A program made the translations under genes and the position numbers. Shown one piece after another: positions 5,701 through 39,374 of a DNA stretch of 64,000 bases (its first letter is position 1; every line of letters begins with the position of its first letter). The notes beneath the pieces are model-generated. The model was not told the DNA's origin. It ran no database searches and was given only the letters and a program-made list of their open reading frames with translations. This stretch comes from Escherichia phage ukendt. The stretch lies in sequence record NC_052661.1, one strand, 5' to 3'.

Positions 5701-6675
5701 TTAAACAGCAGCTTCTTCTTTTTCAGGGAAGATAAAGCTTGCAATAACACCAAGAGCTAATGTGCCTAGAACAATCATCAGACTTACGTTAGGGGAAATA
5801 TCATGCGGGAGGAATGACCACTTGGCATGAAGTGTTTCACCGAACGGGTGATACATAAGTTTAGCACCGACAAATACCAGAACCACAGCAACAGCTTTCT
5901 CTAAGTGAACCAGATATTTCACAGCTACACTTAACACAAAGAAAAGTGCACGTAAACCAAGAACAGCCATCAGCATTGCAGAATAAACTAGCAGAGGTTC
6001 TTGTGTCACACCAATAACAGCCGGAACTGAATCAAAAGAGAACACAATATCTGTAAGCTCAATAACAAACACACAAAGAAGAGCAGGAGTTGCATATTTA
6101 ATACCATTCTTAATGGTAATGAACTTTTCACCATCCAGTGCGTTGTGCACAGGCAGAACTTTACCTACTAAACGAACAGCCCAATGTTTAGAGTAATCAA
6201 TATCTTCTTCTTCGTCACCACCTTTGATAATAGCAACGGCAGACCAAGCTACAATCAGACCGAACAACACTTGGACCGACCAATGCAGGTTAAACAAAGC
6301 TGTCCCTGCTGCAACAAAAACACCTCGGAAGACAATGGCACCTGCAATACCCCAAAGTAAAATCTTATGTTGGAGATGTGTGCTCTTAATTCCAAAGCTT
6401 GCAAAAATTGCCATGAACACCATTAGGTTATCTACAGAAAGACTCTTTTCCAACACATATCCACTTAGGAAAAGTGCGGCAAACTCTTTACCATGCTCTA
6501 CCCAAATGAATGCGTAATATCCTAAAGCTAAAGCAATCCAAAAAACAGACCAAAGCAAAGCAGATTTAATTCCAATTTCTTTATTCTCTTTATGACCAAA
6601 GAAATCGATACCAATAGACAATGCCAAAATACCAACTAAAACAACTACATCAATAATTGGGAAACCGAGTTGCAT
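5701..6675 (-). CDS. terC: TerC-family integral membrane protein
   Basis: 324 aa multi-pass membrane protein with EKSLSVDN and ELTDIVFSFDSVPAV motifs typical of TerC. Confidence 0.7.
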   Translation of the reverse strand: MQLGFPIIDVVVLVGILALSIGIDFFGHKENKEIGIKSALLWSVFWIALALGYYAFIWVEHGKEFAALFLSGYVLEKSLSVDNLMVFMAIFASFGIKSTHLQHKILLWGIAGAIVFRGVFVAAGTALFNLHWSVQVLFGLIVAWSAVAIIKGGDEEEDIDYSKHWAVRLVGKVLPVHNALDGEKFITIKNGIKYATPALLCVFVIELTDIVFSFDSVPAVIGVTQEPLLVYSAMLMAVLGLRALFFVLSVAVKYLVHLEKAVAVVLVFVGAKLMYHPFGETLHAKWSFLPHDISPNVSLMIVLGTLALGVIASFIFPEKEEAAV

Positions 6676-6692
6676 TCTTTTCTCCTCTCTTT

Positions 6693-6751
6693 GCGGGGAA
6701 CTATTCCCCGCTTCATGTGATATATCTTACTCTTTTTAAGAACTATGTCAA
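6693..6751 (-). promoter_or_regulatory. cassette-type promoter + 5' hairpin driving terC
   Basis: On the minus strand: TTGACA, 16 nt, TAAGAT, then ACATGAAGCGGGGAATAGTTCCCCGC hairpin, RBS, ATG at 6675. Confidence 0.55.
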
Positions 6752-6754
6752 CAC

Positions 6755-6976
6755 TTATTTTGTTGAATGAGAGGAAAAGATTCCTCGTAATACCGCCAGA
6801 ATAAACGAAACACAAACCACGGTCCAGAAGGTTACTGGGACAGTGATATCTGCATGACCCATAACTTCAGCAACATAGTTGTAAGCCAGCAACAGTAACC
6901 AAGCTGGAATCAAACTAAGCATAAAAGCAATAACAAAAAAGCTTACCACTGCAACAATACCTGCAAAAACACCCAT
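6755..6976 (-). CDS. small membrane protein
   Basis: 73 aa, two hydrophobic segments. Confidence 0.5.
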   Translation of the reverse strand: MGVFAGIVAVVSFFVIAFMLSLIPAWLLLLAYNYVAEVMGHADITVPVTFWTVVCVSFILAVLRGIFSSHSTK

Positions 6977-6988
6977 ACTAATCTCCTC

Positions 6989-7462
6989 TTAAAGTTTATA
7001 AATAGTCACATCGTGACCTGTTTTTACTAAAGTTTCTTCAATCATCACTTGGATGATAGCCCAATTACCTCCAGCATATCCAGCGCCAATCATAGGTAAG
7101 CCGATCTTACATTTTTGGTCACGGAGAAGCAAATCATTAGCCATAGCTATTAGTGCATCGTAAAGTGCATCATAGTCCAACTGACGACCTTTAGCATTGT
7201 ATCCGTAACGGTATTGTCCGTATAGATTATATACCAAAGGGTCTGATTGTTCGTCTGGCAACCCTAAACTAAAAGAACCTAACTTACTTTGATCACCAGC
7301 CATTGTGTCTAAATCTGCCGCATATGCATAAGGGAATGCTCGTTTAATTTGCGGAGCAATTCCTGCTCCCATATTACACATACAATTGCAACAATGAGCA
7401 ATAACAGTTACTTCTCCTGCTTTAGCGGCATCAATAAGATTACCTGTTTTCATTTTAAGCAT
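6989..7462 (-). CDS. macro-domain protein (ADP-ribose binding/hydrolase)
   Basis: 157 aa; VIAHCCNCMCNMGAGIA and IGLPMIGAGYAGG match the two macro-domain Gly-rich loops. Confidence 0.6.
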   Translation of the reverse strand: MLKMKTGNLIDAAKAGEVTVIAHCCNCMCNMGAGIAPQIKRAFPYAYAADLDTMAGDQSKLGSFSLGLPDEQSDPLVYNLYGQYRYGYNAKGRQLDYDALYDALIAMANDLLLRDQKCKIGLPMIGAGYAGGNWAIIQVMIEETLVKTGHDVTIYKL

Positions 7463-26163: not shown

Positions 26164-26522
26164 TTGACGTTCAAATTATGCGCAACGAAAGAATGGACTT
26201 CTTTGAAGCAGTAGAGAAACATCTGATCCGATGGGACTATGAATTTGTTCCTGCTGGATGTGGACCAGTAGAGCATTTAGCGGAAGACGACGATGTATAC
26301 ATGATCATTCGTCAAGTGTACCAGACAGACCAGTGTGAAGAAACTCCCGAACTGATTTTGTTTGAGTGTAAAGATCTTGCAAAATATTTTGACTATGGCG
26401 GAAAAGAGGGTCATAATCTCTCCAGATACAATAAACGTCTACTTATCTTAGACTACATGCGGAACAACAAACACAAACTCATCGACGCAGAAGCAGTTTA
26501 TGGCTACTGGTGGATGGACTAA
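26157..26522 (+). CDS. hypothetical protein
   Basis: 121 aa ORF. Confidence 0.5.
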   Translation: MLVDVQIMRNERMDFFEAVEKHLIRWDYEFVPAGCGPVEHLAEDDDVYMIIRQVYQTDQCEETPELILFECKDLAKYFDYGGKEGHNLSRYNKRLLILDYMRNNKHKLIDAEAVYGYWWMD

Positions 26523-26535
26523 CAAAGGAGAAACT

Positions 26536-26715
26536 ATGGCACGTTTAGCAGATCATGAAATCTTTAAACCTATTCTGAACCACTATGATGAACTTAAAGC
26601 AGTGTTGGATTGTTATAGAGAGGATGAAGAACGTTTGGAAGTCAATCTTAAGATAGTTCTGATGAAAGCTTTTCAAGACGGGCAAGCTAAAGTTTTAGAA
26701 GGCATGAAAAAATGA
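26536..26715 (+). CDS. hypothetical protein
   Basis: Start refined to ATG 26536 after AAAGGAG. Confidence 0.45.
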   Translation: MARLADHEIFKPILNHYDELKAVLDCYREDEERLEVNLKIVLMKAFQDGQAKVLEGMKK

Positions 26716-27254
26716 GAATAACTGATGAATATGTATTCTTCTTTTCACATAAAGATGTGTTTAGTAATTGGTATATTGCACCCTTTACAGAAACTGAACC
26801 AGGTTACAATGAGACTTTCTGTTGTGTTGAGCAATATATGATGTGGCGTAAGGCTTTGCTGTTCAAGGATCATGCGATTGCAGCAGCTATCCTTGATCAC
26901 TCAACTATACGTGACAACGAGAGGAAACAAGCATACTACAAACGTATGGGTCGAGCGGTATCTGGTTTTAATAATGATATGTGGGAAGAGAACCGTGAGC
27001 GTATTGTTATGCGAGGCTTATGCTTGAAATATGTACAGAATCCAGATTTGTATGCAGACTTACACCTTTACCAATACAAAACGTTTGTTGAAGCAAGCCC
27101 CTACGATAAGGTTTACGGAATTGGAATGGGGATGTATGAACCAGGGGTGCTAAACCCTGCTACCTGGAAAGGGCAGAATCTTTTAGGCAAATATCATAAT
27201 AAACTGATCGAAATACTCTTCCAAGACAAAATACCGCAAAGACGATATTTGTGA
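26712..27254 (+). CDS. NADAR (YbiA-like) domain protein
   Basis: 180 aa; FFFSHKDVFSNWY...CCVEQYMMWRKA matches the NADAR signature. Confidence 0.6.
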   Translation: MRITDEYVFFFSHKDVFSNWYIAPFTETEPGYNETFCCVEQYMMWRKALLFKDHAIAAAILDHSTIRDNERKQAYYKRMGRAVSGFNNDMWEENRERIVMRGLCLKYVQNPDLYADLHLYQYKTFVEASPYDKVYGIGMGMYEPGVLNPATWKGQNLLGKYHNKLIEILFQDKIPQRRYL

Positions 27255-27310
27255 TATTTTAACTTTTTTCATTTTTAGAACAAAGGTGTCACTTTGTAGC
27301 ACAGAAATAA

Positions 27311-27345
27311 GGCTCCTACAGCACCGTAGAGAGCCTGTTATTTTA
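27311..27345 (+). terminator. rho-independent terminator after the NADAR gene
   Basis: GGCTCCTAC...GTAGAGAGCC hairpin followed by TGTTATTTTA. Confidence 0.45.
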
Positions 27346-27496
27346 TCCTATACAAACCCTTGTCTTTTTCAGTTTGCATCACTAGGATTCGATCTGAGTG
27401 GGTTCCTGAAGGTCTGCCAATAAGATTAAAGGTTATCTCAAATTCCCACTACCTATTATCTCAAAAATCCCTCAAATTATTTAAACTTTTTAAGAA

Positions 27497-27536
27497 TTTA
27501 CAAAAGTGAAAGTTGAAAACCAAAATTTAAAGTTTA
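27497..27536. repeat. direct repeat, copy 1 (TTTAAAGTTTA-containing unit)
   Basis: TTTACAAAAGTGAAAGTTGAAAACCAAAATTTAAAGTTTAG, imperfectly repeated at 27636. Confidence 0.5.
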
Positions 27537-27635
27537 GGAAAATTATCTTAAAATGTTAGATACAAAACAAAACTCAAAAGTCAAGGAAAATTTTAAAAAT
27601 TTTGCGCGCCCACAGTATTTAAAGTTTTTTTGCTT

Positions 27636-27675
27636 TTACAAAAATGAAAGTACAAAAGCAAAATTTAAAGTTTAC
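27636..27675. repeat. direct repeat, copy 2
   Basis: TTTACAAAAATGAAAGTACAAAAGCAAAATTTAAAGTTTAC. Confidence 0.5.
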
Positions 27676-27722
27676 AAAAATTTTTATGCAGGTGAAAATG
27701 AGAAGAGTTCTCATATGGAAAT

Positions 27723-27745
27723 GCAAATGATAATGATTCGCATTT
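27723..27745. promoter_or_regulatory. Fur-box-like operator (site A)
   Basis: GCAAATGATAATGATTCGCATTT, about 14 of 19 to the Fur consensus, 60 bp upstream of site B. Confidence 0.4.
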
Positions 27746-27761
27746 AAGTTTATAAATGAGA

Positions 27762-27803
27762 TTGATTCTTATTTAATAAGGTAAATGATAATCATTCTCA
27801 TTT
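27762..27803 (+). promoter_or_regulatory. promoter with Fur-box-like operator across the -10 (site B)
   Basis: TTGATT, 18 nt, TGATAAT; palindrome AAATGATAATCATTCTCATTT matches the Fur consensus GATAATGATAATCATTATC at 16 of 19 positions. Confidence 0.5.
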
Positions 27804-28021
27804 AGAGAATGACGCGCAGGGGCGGTGTTTGTCTCGCGCTCCCGTGTCCCCTCGCCATGTAATAAGAATAACAGATCCAGCCAGGAAAGCAAGAGATTAT
27901 TTTATCTTTACATTTCTTTACAAATATATAGCGCCCAGCCTACCGGCGATCAACCTTCCAACCAGTGCCTCTGGTATGTTAGCCCCGCCTTTACGCCGTG
28001 GGGTGGCGCTTCCTCTTCTGT

Positions 28022-28056
28022 ATGTAAAACAGTATAAGCCCGATCCCTGGGCTTGT
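28022..28056 (-). promoter_or_regulatory. sigma70-like promoter reading leftward into non-coding DNA
   Basis: On the minus strand: TTGACA, 17 nt (AGCCCAGGGATCGGGCT, itself a hairpin), TATACT. Confidence 0.4.
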
Positions 28057-28061
28057 CAAGA

Positions 28062-28328
28062 TTATTTTTTGTTTTCTTGCCAGGATAGGACACCTAACCA
28101 AAAATACATATCGCCCCGCGCCCCTGGTGGTATCTTGCTTTCCCCGCCGCCACTGCAAGCCCATAGATAACCATTTGCGAACGTATCAAAATGATCTATC
28201 TCTTCCACCTTATGATCGCCCAGGTTGAGAACGGTTTCAACCTTTAAGCCCGTTGCGCTTGCTACCTGGTGCACCGTGCCGCCTTGCCAGCCCAATGAGT
28301 GCATAAGGTGTAATGTAGTATTTGTCAT
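28062..28328 (-). CDS. hypothetical protein (divergent gene at left edge of cassette array)
   Basis: 88 aa ORF in GC-richer DNA; GC hairpin about 30 nt upstream of its ATG. Confidence 0.4.
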   Translation of the reverse strand: MTNTTLHLMHSLGWQGGTVHQVASATGLKVETVLNLGDHKVEEIDHFDTFANGYLWACSGGGESKIPPGARGDMYFWLGVLSWQENKK

Positions 28329-28437
28329 GGTATCGCCCTTTCTTTGATGTGCGCCCTGGTTGGCGCGGTAGAAAGATGATAGCCCTTTCTTTTATATATA
28401 GCAAGCAAAAAGAAAATAAAAAAGATTGAAAAAGTGA

Positions 28438-28496
28438 TTGACGTTCGCCAGGTGGCGGCATAATATTTACCACGTAGGGCGGCAATGGTGCCGCTC
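28438..28496 (+). promoter_or_regulatory. cassette promoter + 5' hairpin module
   Basis: TTGACG, 17 nt, TAATAT, then ACGTAGGGCGGCAATGGTGCCGCTCA hairpin. Confidence 0.55.
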
Positions 28497-28515
28497 ATTA
28501 TTTGGAGTTAAAATC

Positions 28516-28713
28516 ATGGCAACATTGCACATTGTGGCGAAAGCTGGACAAATAAACGTGGTAGTAAACGGTTTTACTGAGTTCAGTCATCCCCAGGATG
28601 ATCATGAAACGGTTTTATCTTTCATTGATTCACTGTTAGAAATGGGAGTAATTACAGAAGACCAGCACGCTACAAAATGCAAACGCGTTAATCAGATTGC
28701 AGGAATAGAATAA
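28516..28713 (+). CDS. cassette small protein
   Basis: 65 aa; own promoter-hairpin module; GGAG RBS. Confidence 0.5.
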   Translation: MATLHIVAKAGQINVVVNGFTEFSHPQDDHETVLSFIDSLLEMGVITEDQHATKCKRVNQIAGIE

Positions 28714-28720
28714 AAAGTAT

Positions 28721-28783
28721 TGACAACAACCAACAACCTGATAAGATGTATCACATAGGGCGGCGGAATGGTCCAGCCGCTCA
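28721..28783 (+). promoter_or_regulatory. cassette promoter + 5' hairpin module
   Basis: TTGACA, 16 nt, TAAGAT, then ACATAGGGCGGCGGAATGGTCCAGCCGC hairpin. Confidence 0.55.
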
Positions 28784-28805
28784 CAACAGAAGAGAGATTA
28801 TAATC

Positions 28806-29078
28806 ATGGCATCATATAGCGCAACAATGATCGTAGCTGGCACCACTGGTAAACCTATGAGCGGTGGCGGATCTTTCGCAAATATCAACATTGACGGGCG
28901 TTTATCCCTGGACGCAGCGATCACCGTGGCGCGGGAAACATTTAAGAAAGAATGTAAATTCAATAAACAAGATTATCTCGGTTTTGCTATTGAAAAAACC
29001 GCGCGTTTTGTTGATTATAAAAGCCCAAAAATGGTTGATACTACACTAAAAGCGCAAGATGTAGCGTTTTTGCTTTAA
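28806..29078 (+). CDS. cassette small protein
   Basis: 90 aa; promoter-hairpin module; start refined to 28806. Confidence 0.5.
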   Translation: MASYSATMIVAGTTGKPMSGGGSFANINIDGRLSLDAAITVARETFKKECKFNKQDYLGFAIEKTARFVDYKSPKMVDTTLKAQDVAFLL

Positions 29079-29082
29079 GGTT

Positions 29083-29136
29083 TGACATTAACGAATAATT
29101 TGTTAATATGTTACATAAAGCGGGAATAGTTCCCGC
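29083..29136 (+). promoter_or_regulatory. cassette promoter + 5' hairpin module
   Basis: TTGACA, 16 nt, TAATAT, then GCGGGAATAGTTCCCGC hairpin. Confidence 0.55.
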
Positions 29137-29154
29137 TATTTGTAAGGTGGTAGA

Positions 29155-29412
29155 ATGTTTTACATCAAATTAAAAGGTCACGTGATCGCGTTCAAGGATA
29201 ACGCTTTTTACAGATTAGCAAAGTATGCGTTAATACATCCCCATTATGTTTATATAAGGGGGCGTGATGAAATAAATATTTTTGATCAAACAACATGCGA
29301 GAACATCGAGATCCGCAAGGTTGGCGTACGTGACTATCGTACATCTTTCTACCCTTGCAAGGATTCAGCAAGTCTTTTTAAAGTATGCCGATTGTTGAAA
29401 AAAGGTGGTTAA
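29155..29412 (+). CDS. cassette small protein
   Basis: 85 aa; promoter-hairpin module. Confidence 0.5.
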   Translation: MFYIKLKGHVIAFKDNAFYRLAKYALIHPHYVYIRGRDEINIFDQTTCENIEIRKVGVRDYRTSFYPCKDSASLFKVCRLLKKGG

Positions 29413-29413
29413 T

Positions 29414-29971
29414 ATGGGCCGCGAATATGTGATCCAGTCTTGGGTAAAACATGAAGCAGATGATCCGCGCATCATTCCTGATTATCTTGTCGATGAATCC
29501 ACGGGCTATAGCGGGGAGCAAATAGGTAACAGATTAGCACGTAGTAACGGCAACGTAAAAGCGCGTTATGTGCGCCCTGGTTGGCTGGCAAATGGTAACG
29601 CTGATTTATCCAGTGCGGAAGATGCGAGCGACGGCGCGAAAGATAATCCCTTGTACAAAGTTGATCCGGCTTTTCGTGTCCTGGATGAATACCCCAACAA
29701 GATAGCGGCGCTTGATGAAGCACTAGAAAGTAAGCGCATCACCTGGACCGCTTACAACATGGCAAAAAACGTACTTGATGGTAAACTGATTCAAGCGGAG
29801 AGAAAATTAGCCAAAATTGCAGCCATAGCCCAGGAGGAAGACGAGGAGACAACGGAAGAGGAAGAGTACGAAGAGATCCCGCCGTTGTTGTGTGTTGATG
29901 CTTTTCCTGATTATCAGCCGACAGAGGAAGAAAAAAGGATCGCCCTAGAAAACTTTGAAAATAGTCTTTGA
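29414..29971 (+). CDS. cassette protein with highly acidic C-terminus
   Basis: 186 aa; EEDEETTEEEEYEE tail; co-transcribed with preceding gene. Confidence 0.5.
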   Translation: MGREYVIQSWVKHEADDPRIIPDYLVDESTGYSGEQIGNRLARSNGNVKARYVRPGWLANGNADLSSAEDASDGAKDNPLYKVDPAFRVLDEYPNKIAALDEALESKRITWTAYNMAKNVLDGKLIQAERKLAKIAAIAQEEDEETTEEEEYEEIPPLLCVDAFPDYQPTEEEKRIALENFENSL

Positions 29972-37882: not shown

Positions 37883-38019
37883 GCCCGAACAATGTTGATA
37901 GCTTTCGCCTATGAAAAACCGACACAGAACAAAACTGAATAAATCACGGTATCAAGCTAATCGACCATTAAACGAATAACCATACATCCCAGGGCAACAG
38001 GCTGTTAGAGAGCTATTTA

Positions 38020-38360
38020 GAGCGGTTAAAATCGATCAACAACCAACAACAAACCATCAAAAACACCCTTTTACCTCCTTTCTAGTGCAATGATAACCAT
38101 TATCATCTACCCATGATTATCTATGCAATATAAGCGCATAATTATAATGTTGATAATAGTTCGCAACAACTAACCAACAAACAACATAAAACAATAAGCA
38201 AACTAATCATAATCAAAGGAATAATAGCAAGATGATTGATAACGACAAACAATCAAACCATGATGAATACTAAGCAAAACAACGATAACACGACAAAACA
38301 ACCAACTAACGAACAATAACAAACGAAACCATTAAAATAACAACTATTAGCAAAATAGTG
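38020..38360. repeat. A+C-rich low-complexity tract with AAC/CAA repeats
   Basis: Long runs such as CAACAACCAACAACAAACCATCAAAAACACCC with almost no G on the plus strand and no ORF. Confidence 0.55.
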
Positions 38361-38489
38361 CCTAAATGAAATCATTACAAAACGAATCATTCACAGGATC
38401 ATCATTAGCACGCTATGCCGGACACATAGCGAGCTAATAATAAGCCAACTACACCCCAACAATCATAACCATCGGTGACGGTTATTTCT

Positions 38490-38520
38490 TGTTACTGCGT
38501 AGCTTGCAATAATTGCAAGC
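38490..38520. repeat. perfect palindrome CTTGCAATAATTGCAAG
   Basis: 17-bp inverted repeat within the non-coding region. Confidence 0.45.
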
Positions 38521-38843
38521 GTAATGACGCTTACACTTATTGCGCTGGCTTATTATTAGCATTATATGTAATTACCAAGATCATAACATTAGCGCAATAA
38601 CAATAATCATTGTGGTAATTACAAGATGAAATCATTAGCAAGATGAATAATTGCACGTAGCAACATGAGCGAATAGCGACAGGTTGCATAGTGTGCACAT
38701 AGTGTATAAACATACAAGAAAATAAAGGCTAATCTTTTGGGGGCGAATACTATCGCGTAGCGATATGTTGAGCACCTTCTCTTAAACGTAAATAAAATCA
38801 GAAAATTCTTGATTTATTTTAGTTTTTATGTTAATAAACGTTT

Positions 38844-38864
38844 AAATAATAATCATTCTCATAT
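38844..38864. promoter_or_regulatory. Fur-box-like operator (site C)
   Basis: AAATAATAATCATTCTCATAT shares the core AATCATTCTCAT with sites B and D. Confidence 0.4.
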
Positions 38865-39002
38865 AAATAATAGTCTGCTTGTCATGAGCGGGATTAGTTG
38901 ACAATGTTCCGTCATATGATGAAGTTGCCAAACCATTGATAAATAAGTGTTTGTGTGATTTATAATCAAGTGGCCCACCTTGTCGCTATGTTGGCATGAG
39001 CC

Positions 39003-39044
39003 TTGCATAAGTCATTGAATACGAATGATAATTATTCTCATTCG
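39003..39044 (+). promoter_or_regulatory. promoter with Fur-box-like operator across the -10 (site D)
   Basis: TTGCAT, 17 nt, TGATAAT; palindrome CGAATGATAATTATTCTCATTCG. Confidence 0.5.
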
Positions 39045-39374
39045 CATGATATTTGGGAATTGTCGCTGCGTGGACCTGACGGCCCGAAAATTCGCGTTAA
39101 GCACTTCTTACGTATGCGCCATGATTTTTGCCATATGATATTGATTCTATTAGATATTCTTGCCATGAAACAAGGTGTGTCGAAATAATCTCTCCCCGTA
39201 GATATTTTGGGTTACTTTTTATACAAGAGTGGGGTGTCAAAAATAATCGGTATATATGGGATAATTGATAGGAATCCCCTATGGTAATTCGATTGTAATT
39301 CCTTAAGATTGATCGTATGATGTTGGTGATTGATGATTGCCATGAAAGATGGCTAACGATGAGAGGAGATTGTC

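Follow-up and report, generated by a model that had tools for sequence, protein, structure and literature searches.

A conserved non-coding cassette with predicted opposed promoters and Fur-box-like operators in the early region of phAPEC8-like phages

The genome of Escherichia phage ukendt (sequence record NC_052661.1) contains, within the 64,000-nucleotide (nt) stretch of DNA analysed here (the window), an unannotated gap of about 800 bp that lies between a plus-strand gene ending at 27254 and a minus-strand gene of 88 amino acids (aa), roughly 6 kb inside a long run of small plus-strand early genes. The phage is a Phapecoctavirus (Stephanstirmvirinae) of the phAPEC8/ESCO13-like type, and over bases 27300-28500 it shares 99.5% identity with Escherichia phage vB_EcoM_UP17 and 99.2% with ESCO13. 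The subject of this study is the part of the gap at positions 27806-28075, which an initial annotation had described as a GC-rich non-coding stretch downstream of a Fur-like promoter, and in which we describe two conserved elements, blocks A and B, together with the predicted promoters and operators that flank them. GC content is 0.47-0.53 over 27800-28300, as against about 0.39 in the surroundings and 0.24-0.26 in the adjacent upstream AT-rich tract. The cause of this GC-richness is an ordinary one, namely GC-rich promoter spacers and stems placed directly after the start site, since such spacers and stems are typical of early units in this phage.

The features on which the following sections draw are these, in window coordinates:

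27699-27713, 27728-27742, 27757-27771 and 27786-27800: four Fur-box-like palindromes, O1-O4, with core TGAtAATcATTcTCA and 29-bp start-to-start spacing
27782..27810, plus strand: candidate Fur-overlapped promoter, inferred, with -35 TAAATG (27782-27787), O4 as spacer, -10 GAGAAT (27805-27810) and a GC-rich discriminator
~27804..27859, minus strand: block B hairpin, with an outer stem, an inner stem of CCGG/CCGG type and a conserved A-rich loop (GAGACAAACAC, minus strand), starting at the predicted P2 start (~27858)
27892..27865, minus strand: P2, a predicted sigma-70 promoter, with -35 TTGCTT (27892..27887), a 16-nt spacer and -10 TATTCT (27870..27865)
27905..27923, no strand assigned: direct repeat TCTTTACAT-T-TCTTTACAA, invariant, about 12 nt upstream of the P2 -35
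27925..28023, minus strand: block A, a conserved non-coding element with a near-invariant core at 27940-28008
27961-27975: variable-length hairpin in block A
28009-28023, minus strand: purine-rich 5' leader of block A, at the predicted P1 start (~28023)
28059..28031, minus strand: P1, a predicted sigma-70 early promoter, with TTGACA (28059..28054), a 17-nt GC-rich hairpin spacer (28053..28037) and TATACT (28036..28031)
28060..28075, minus strand: A/T-rich tract preceding the P1 -35, placed as an UP element would be, and overlapping the stop codon of the 88-aa gene
28062..28328, minus strand: 88-aa gene, phrog_19316, which ends at P1 and is context, outside the non-coding element

Non-coding character and conservation of the stretch

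The non-coding character of the stretch, as originally annotated, was borne out. Its two plus-strand open reading frames (ORFs; 27825..28037, 70 aa, and 27829..28170, 113 aa), which had been considered spurious, are present in the window, yet they are unconserved and belong to no family. Among relatives with 93-99% identity to the window, 1-nt indels at 27961-27975 truncate, shift or abolish the frames, leaving 57-68 aa of the 113-aa ORF and, often, no 70-aa ORF. The indels in the stretch have lengths that do not divide by three, 12 of 29 sequences have ACG in place of the ATG at 27977, and Pfam and PHROG searches with all six local ORFs returned the 88-aa gene as their sole match. The region has been left empty in careful annotations (ESCO13, ASO2A, PVP-SE1 and CB7). 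The breakup of the ORFs, the empty annotations and the lack of a protein family therefore establish that 27806-28075 is non-coding DNA. ORFs of 39-113 aa do occur on both strands, and hypothetical proteins have been annotated here in some GenBank records, but no ORF is kept even among the phages that are 93-99% identical; this, with the indels, the ATG lost in 12 of the 29 sequences, the want of a family match and the blank left by careful annotators, makes it extremely improbable that any of these small ORFs encodes a real protein.

An Rfam search (Rfam 15) over 26500-29500 gave no match at E values up to 1, and ARAGORN detected no tRNA or tmRNA in the window or in the loci of four relatives. 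A tRNA-like cloverleaf for block A was considered and ruled out, as neither a T-loop nor an acceptor is conserved. In the record of Klebsiella phage vB_Kpn_K45PH128C2 (OY978796; locus L005, 1504-1657), tRNA-Met and tRNA-Ile are annotated over the operator/block B region; ARAGORN finds no tRNA there, and the annotation is probably an error.

Loci for comparison were gathered from GenBank phages, IMG/VR, metagenomes and one metagenome-assembled genome (MAG), and are cited by locus number (L) where positions within them are given. Distant blastn searches recovered positions ~27744-28029 at 70-75% identity in phages of Klebsiella, Cronobacter, Salmonella (PVP-SE1) and Pectobacterium (CB7, PhiTE), and rV5-like phages keep part of this span. 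Identity between the window and the distant genera, feature by feature, is as follows:

Last Fur box (O4) and adjacent -10: 0.83-0.90
TCTTTAC direct repeat: 0.89-0.95
Block A core: 0.77-0.87
Block B: 0.48-0.75
Flanks: 0.2-0.55

Judged from these alignments, the stretch is under strong purifying selection. In 225 phage records that span several genera (including phAPEC8, phi92, GAP31, 4MG and PVP-SE1), each genome has a single copy of block A; the hosts of these phages are Escherichia, Klebsiella, Salmonella, Cronobacter, Pectobacterium, Enterobacter and Serratia. Searches of bacterial genomes found no block A save in one phage-like MAG contig, and an origin in the E. coli chromosome was not indicated, positions 27800-28400 giving no blastn match. 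Block A is in no rV5-sized contig and is missing from the rV5-like loci that were fetched; these phages have two tandem operator and block B modules and no block A.

An insertion in one IMG/VR locus bears on the constraint acting on block A. In L019 (IMGVR_UViG_2974574029_000001, 6278-7060) an HNH homing endonuclease gene (197 aa, phrog_953) has entered block A at CCGGCGAT^CC. This minus-strand gene, which has a ribosome-binding site (RBS) of its own, begins 25 nt past the first two thirds of block A and is adjoined by a diverged block A paralog with its own P1-like promoter. Between P1 and the endonuclease gene there is no other promoter, and P1 transcripts would therefore run through block A. 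Homing endonucleases usually target invariant functional sequence, so that the insertion fits a functionally constrained block A.

Promoters, operators and conserved blocks

The promoter scan identified P1 as TTGACA-17-TATACT, matching 11 of 12 consensus positions, and in Klebsiella and Cronobacter phages P2 takes the form TTGCAA-17-TATATT. Across 35 distinct loci, among which 18 different spacers occur, P1 scores 9-12 out of 12, its hexamers being TTGACA, TTGCAA or TTGACG with TATACT, TATATT or CATAAT; P2 scores 7-9 out of 12 in 34 distinct loci with 25 different spacers, with TTGCAA, TTGCTT or TTGATC paired with TATATT, TATTCT or TATTAT. A conserved element starts 6-8 nt past the -10 of each promoter in a TTACAT context, the distance for P2 being a constant 6-7 nt, and the predicted starts fall at ~28023 for P1 and ~27858 for P2. 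Hexamers that are kept over drifting spacers, at a fixed distance to the elements, are the signature of working promoters. The early promoters of Certrevirus have the published consensus AAAA(N4)TGTTGAC(N17)TATAAT (PMC7344957), and P1 and P2 belong to the same class; that consensus includes an AAAA upstream element, and an A/T-rich tract is kept upstream of the P1 -35 in relatives.

Assignment of P1 changes the reading of a hairpin, AAGCCCGATCCCTGGGCTT at 28037-28055, which with a nearby T-run had been taken as the terminator of a plus-strand transcript. The hairpin coincides exactly with the 17-nt P1 spacer, the T-run (28066-28071) begins about 11 nt beyond the stem and belongs to the A/T-rich upstream tract, and the terminator scan made no plus-strand call at 28037-28075, calling the hairpin on the minus strand only, with the tail ATACTGTTTT. 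These observations dispose of a plus-strand intrinsic terminator at this site; on the minus strand, the spacer hairpin may also end the transcript of the 88-aa gene. The initial annotation was right that a minus-strand promoter lies here, and a near-consensus one at that, but its coordinates (28022-28056) must be replaced by 28059..28031.

Alignment of 29 distinct block A sequences revealed 57 invariant columns. The hairpin loop between its two invariant halves differs in length by 1-11 nt, even in near-identical phages, while the base of the hairpin carries one compensatory change from A-U to G-C that divides the sequences 17:12 with no exceptions. The change in loop length and the A-U/G-C swap point to RNA or another single strand and away from a fixed duplex-DNA site, which argues for block A folding in single-stranded form. 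A closing stem around block A (AGCGCC/GGCGCT) was discarded, being restricted to the window's clade and unconserved. When blocks A and B were screened with RNAduplex against 229 putative translation-start regions of the window, the duplexes were unrealistically long and none stood out, and the screen was dropped as uninformative.

Block B is recognized by its covariance model at 27804-27859 on the minus strand (E 0.003). Aligned with this model, 29 distinct sequences have 89.7% of their cells paired. Their covariation score of 0.232 was reached by none of 500 shuffles, for which the value is 0.160; pairs with double changes number just three, and 181 of the 500 shuffles do as well. The outer stem is built of differing sequences in rV5, PVP-SE1 and the window.

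Between P2 and block A lies the invariant TCTTTAC direct repeat. The double form, TCTTTAC-N3/4-TCTTTAC, has a single occurrence in the window; relatives have further copies, facing either way, shortly before other early promoters (L017 4736-4751; L014 10162-10177; L084, with four copies), and it is probably a protein-binding site. A plus-strand promoter built from the TTTACA repeats was ruled out, there being no conserved -10.

The Fur-like motif occurs 23 times in the window where 6.5 matches are expected, a number that was reached in none of 100 shuffles. Counted by hand, O4 agrees at 16 of 19 positions with the textbook Fur consensus, GATAATGATAATCATTATC. With its flanks (AATGATAATCATTCTCATTT), O4 is identical at 20 of 21 positions to AATGATAATCATTTTCATTT, a site that precedes the E. 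coli iron/manganese transporter gene sitA by 73 bp, and a Fur box has been noted upstream of sit operons (PMC6969025). The same palindromes are found in the left terminal repeat of T5-like phages, beside DnaA boxes. Palindromes common to unrelated phages whose hosts share Fur point to a host factor and not to a phage-specific one. By sequence, O1-O4 are Fur boxes, to which host Fur may bind. Window positions 27718-27797 are related to positions 1100-1260 and 1563-1622 of the T5-like phage poul124 (L093, MF431735), and the palindromes also match the predicted terminal repeat of the jumbo Klebsiella phage Muenster.

The candidate plus-strand promoter that incorporates O4 as its spacer has the -35 TTGAAT in Vequintavirinae, where it scores 8 of 12, and its -10 GAAT and operator are invariant in the alignment with relatives. 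The promoter scan made no call for a plus-strand promoter at 27782..27810; an alternative, TTGATT-16-AATGAT, scores 8 of 12. The Fur-like promoter proposed upstream of the stretch stands as regards its palindromes, which adjoin the stretch and include the sitA-like O4, but the promoter itself is weak, at 6-8 of 12 positions. As placed by sequence only, its -10 (27805-27810) faces the minus-strand starts at ~27858 and ~28023 in a convergent arrangement. The 5' half of the block B outer stem sits between the -10 and +1 of this promoter, so that the minus-strand transcript alone can hold the full block B hairpin.

On the far side of the operators, the AT-rich tract at 27400-27700 (24-26% GC) is itself repetitive, with a direct repeat of 72 nt, the two copies of which (27473-27544 and 27611-27682) are 82% identical, and with repeats of 34 nt. 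At the same position, Vequintavirinae carry other iteron-like repeats (GGTCTCGATC, TTTCGAAATC).

A model of opposed transcription and its rivals

The arrangement described above suggests a model in which host RNA polymerase would initiate at two minus-strand sigma-70 early promoters, P1 and P2. The P1 RNA (start ~28023) would consist of the purine-rich leader followed by the nearly invariant block A, the P2 RNA (start ~27858) would open with the block B hairpin, and both would head toward the four Fur boxes and the AT-rich tract. From the other side, the weak plus promoter, with the last Fur box as its spacer, would transcribe back over both blocks. Under conditions where iron is plentiful, host Fur on the boxes would shut off the plus promoter and could in addition halt the minus transcripts; where iron is scarce, the plus promoter would be freed, and either convergent transcription and antisense pairing would lower the minus RNAs or plus transcription would reach early genes further downstream. 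Those parts of block A that are invariant and mostly without structure might act by sequence, through base-pairing or the binding of a conserved host factor, a proposal prompted by the stronger conservation of block A in sequence than in structure. We assign a probability of roughly 0.4 to this reading, in which early minus-strand non-coding RNAs are opposed by a Fur-controlled antisense plus promoter within an accessory cassette of the Stephanstirmvirinae/Vequintavirinae early region.

We infer the existence and the ends of the minus RNAs, as well as any downstream effect, from the promoters and elements themselves. With limited confidence, the minus strand is favoured as that of the primary products, because P1 and P2 are the best conserved promoters and each lies upstream of a conserved element, while the plus promoter is weak, lacks a terminator and cuts block B. 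The sense/antisense RNA pair envisaged in the initial annotation is retained in so far as the promoters are opposed and their predicted transcripts overlap by sequence; its orientation and its terminator are not.

Several observations weigh against this model. The fold z score of block A is -1.7 on either strand in the window and close to 0 both in the block A of Klebsiella type and in its paralog; nearly all of the block is invariant and so lends its fold almost no covariation. At two block A columns, U-to-C changes occur opposite an invariant G, favouring the plus strand, and at 27982-28008 a hairpin with four G-U pairs can be drawn on the plus strand only. Strand calls from G-U versus A-C pairs give mixed signals across blocks A and B: in block B, 30 G-U cells are compatible with the minus sense only and 11 with the plus sense only, a count that is biased because the alignment was fitted to a minus-sense model. 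The inner stem of block B is CTGG/CCGG in PhiTE and CB7, which again favours the plus strand, and the fold z of the block ranges from -3.3 to +0.2 by phage, with a value of about 0 in the window. The folding and covariance analysis that had been suggested as a check on the stretch therefore yields a divided answer, with covariation in block B above all 500 shuffles and one clean swap in block A on one side, and z scores of -1.7 to 0 (A) and -3.3 to +0.2 (B) on the other. The plus promoter is weak in the window phage, at 6 of 12 positions as placed by alignment. The terminator scan detected no intrinsic or canonical terminator after either minus-strand RNA, and no Hfq-type 3' terminator hairpin with U-tail after block A or B on either strand. 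Finally, in phage ETEC-TG (OR786310; L094, 500-560), recombination between two GCGCCCTGGT repeats has deleted about 390 bp, so that an otherwise typical Phapecoctavirus isolate is left without the 88-aa gene, P1 and that half of block A which is invariant. This deletion and the absence of block A from rV5-like phages therefore mark block A as accessory and dispensable, and the cassette is probably accessory as a whole.

The same features have been read in the opposite sense. In a reading that follows the initial annotation, the product would be a small plus RNA, starting at ~27817, running through both blocks and ending near 28010-28075, that is made in low iron in the manner of RyhB, the minus promoter providing antisense only. 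A Fur box overlaps a plus-strand -10 that every lineage has kept, and the plus hairpin at 27982-28008, 11 bp long with four G-U pairs that make it impossible on the minus strand and with its two U-to-C columns, is followed by a conserved pyrimidine tract that shows C/T changes only; C/U-rich stretches such as CCACCUUCC could, moreover, seed against RBSs. We nevertheless consider a plus-strand product distinctly unlikely, given that no U-run directly follows any plus hairpin (28037-28055 being the P1 spacer), that the plus promoter reaches just 6-8 of 12 positions, that a plus start inside the block B outer stem would prevent the conserved hairpin from forming, and that two strong dedicated minus promoters would be left unexplained. 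The L019 insertion, too, splits the plus RNA by a 600-nt antisense gene and keeps a complete minus-strand unit of promoter and element. Alternatively, the locus might function as DNA only, its promoters, terminator-promoter hairpins and protein sites (the Fur boxes, TCTTTAC and block A) insulating or tuning early units whose transcripts here are functionless. Such a role is consistent with the near-zero fold z, with block A being kept as sequence and not as covarying structure, with a TCTTTAC repeat that acts like an orientation-independent protein site near other promoters, with the general occurrence of GC-rich hairpins in spacers and after starts in the early units of this phage, and with the dispensability of the cassette in ETEC-TG. 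It is harder to reconcile with the 1-11 bp spacing change between the block A halves, which is awkward for a duplex site and natural for a loop, with the compensatory A-U/G-C swap at the hairpin base, with a block B outer stem that has been rebuilt from different sequences between genera, or with the presence of P1 and P2 where there is no gene for them to serve, and on balance we think it unlikely.

Two further proposals assign the transcripts a role in cis. A transcription-primed origin of the T4 oriF/oriG or T7 type, a likeness that draws on what is well established for those origins, would have the P1 and P2 RNAs form an R-loop in the AT-rich tract at 27400-27700, with the blocks shaping the primer. 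Strong promoters do read into this 300-bp tract of 24-26% GC with its 72-nt and 34-nt direct repeats, and other iteron-like repeats (GGTCTCGATC) occupy the same place in relatives. That the locus is an origin is very unlikely all the same: ETEC-TG is viable without P1 and half of block A; rV5-like phages lack block A; the locus has no DnaA boxes, none (TTWTNCACA) being found within 15 kb of it; cumulative GC skew in the window tracks gene orientation with no turn at the locus; and Fur control would have no obvious reason. In the other proposal the plus strand serves as an antitermination leader, in which tandem UCUUUACAA would be BoxA-like NusB/NusE sites, with the blocks accessory, so that polymerase from the Fur-controlled promoter could reach the plus-strand genes from 28517 onward over some 700 nt that are untranslated and transcribed head-on. 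As a lead only, UCUUUACAAUU resembles BoxA of rrn (UCUUUAACAAUU) and of lambda nutR (CUCUUACACA); the order of hairpin, BoxA-like repeat and further element is that of rrn leaders, and the repeat is invariant across genera. Elsewhere, however, the repeat lies upstream of promoters in either orientation, which fits a DNA site better than an RNA signal, and the plus promoter is weak, leaving antitermination a very slim chance.

Gene context and relation to known systems

The 88-aa protein encoded next to P1 is 42% identical to CB7_124, with which it has a helix-turn-helix-like N-terminus (LGWQGGTVHQVASATGLKVETVLNL) in common; in Seunavirus and Mydovirus the gene at this position encodes an unrelated DUF7170 protein. 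Early plus-strand units of the window (28438-28500 and similar sites) consist of TTGACG, a GC-rich hairpin spacer, TAATAT and a second GC hairpin past the start, followed by an RBS. The ASO2A record labels such sites promoter plus terminator, and the design suggests coupled terminator-promoter elements. Further along, 37950-39370 comprises about 1.4 kb without a credible ORF, A/C-rich and of low complexity (caacaaccaacaacaaacc...), that also holds two Fur-box-like palindromes (38847-38861 and 39026-39040) and, at 39022-39102, a weak second copy resembling the operator and block B (nhmmer E 0.008).

Literature searches found no description of this element or locus, and no transcriptome of any related phage. 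While no Rfam family or paper was found that describes the cassette, it may be grouped with other non-coding regulatory loci of phages in which promoters converge. Should the RNAs prove real, they would form a new, deeply conserved family of early non-coding RNAs, with block A represented in 225 deposited genomes, many of them therapy candidates; the records either carry no annotation for the family or label it wrongly, as hypothetical proteins and in one case as tRNAs. If the Fur link is true, strictly lytic phages would gain a direct input of host iron status, for which we found no report in these phages or in T5, where the terminal-repeat palindromes that carry the motif have long lacked an explanation; the Fur connection is also the most testable feature of the locus. 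For annotation, the analysis supplies exact coordinates for two promoters, two candidate RNA elements and four operators, and the ORFs called in the stretch should leave the annotations.

Like the Fur-repressed promoters of sitABCD, iucA and ryhB type, the candidate plus promoter has a box of the 19-bp class overlapping its predicted core elements and, as in ryhB, its product would be non-coding. In contrast with these systems, the locus belongs to a virulent phage and has four boxes at 29-bp spacing around a weak promoter that faces two stronger convergent ones; in contrast with ryhB in particular, it has no RyhB-like sequence, Hfq-type terminator or Rfam match.

Within the same phage group, PhiTE, which carries blocks A and B (L016), offers a precedent for a dispensable functional non-coding RNA locus in its pseudo-ToxI RNA (PMC3475682). 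That locus lies between phiTE_202 and 203, the blocks between 078 and 079, and its 36-nt tandem antitoxin-mimic repeats have no sequence in common with the single-copy blocks; the cassette was accordingly ruled out as the pseudo-ToxI locus.

The palindromes also connect the locus with Untranslated Repeat Region 3 of T5, the injection-stop region, which has the same palindromes at 81-87% identity over 55-60 nt; in a T5-like phage, operator, GAGAAT and GC-rich hairpin form one module (L093 1563-1622). The T5 region resembles the present locus also in being a long, conserved, untranslated and repeat-rich part of a virulent coliphage (Davison, bioRxiv 10.1101/866236), and the paper, which catalogues the palindromes, is silent on Fur. 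Unlike the present locus, T5 has paired DnaA boxes in its terminal repeat and no block A, and PhiTE, a relative of the phage studied here, is circularly permuted (PMC3475682). One could go further and suppose that three unrelated virulent lineages (phAPEC8/phi92-like, rV5/PVP-SE1-like and T5-like) have true operators for host Fur, coupled to a promoter-hairpin module that they share, that the first two join to it an invariant early block A RNA of about 100 nt, that host iron thereby sets the level of a trans-acting RNA which targets or sponges a conserved host component, and that the T5 injection-stop palindromes are Fur sites; we regard this larger scheme as speculative and, taken whole, unlikely. 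As a separate observation, a Klebsiella Mydovirus (L017 4848-4887) and the T5-like terminal repeat (L093 1388-1427) share 40 nt of non-coding sequence (CCTAAAACGTCCTGAATCGC.TTCTAA...) at 87.5% identity, a further non-coding sequence common to unrelated virulent phages.

Convergent-promoter and cis-antisense switches are exemplified by pR/pL of coliphage 186, OOP of lambda, sar of P22 and CopA/CopT of R1. The locus resembles these established systems in its facing promoters 100-240 bp apart, in the full complementarity of the predicted transcripts and in an overlap that contains a hairpin with a conserved loop. It differs from them in that no lysis-lysogeny or replication gene is encoded or overlapped and in that two promoters stand in tandem on one side, while the other side, in a strictly virulent phage, appears to be controlled by a host metal regulator and not by a phage repressor.

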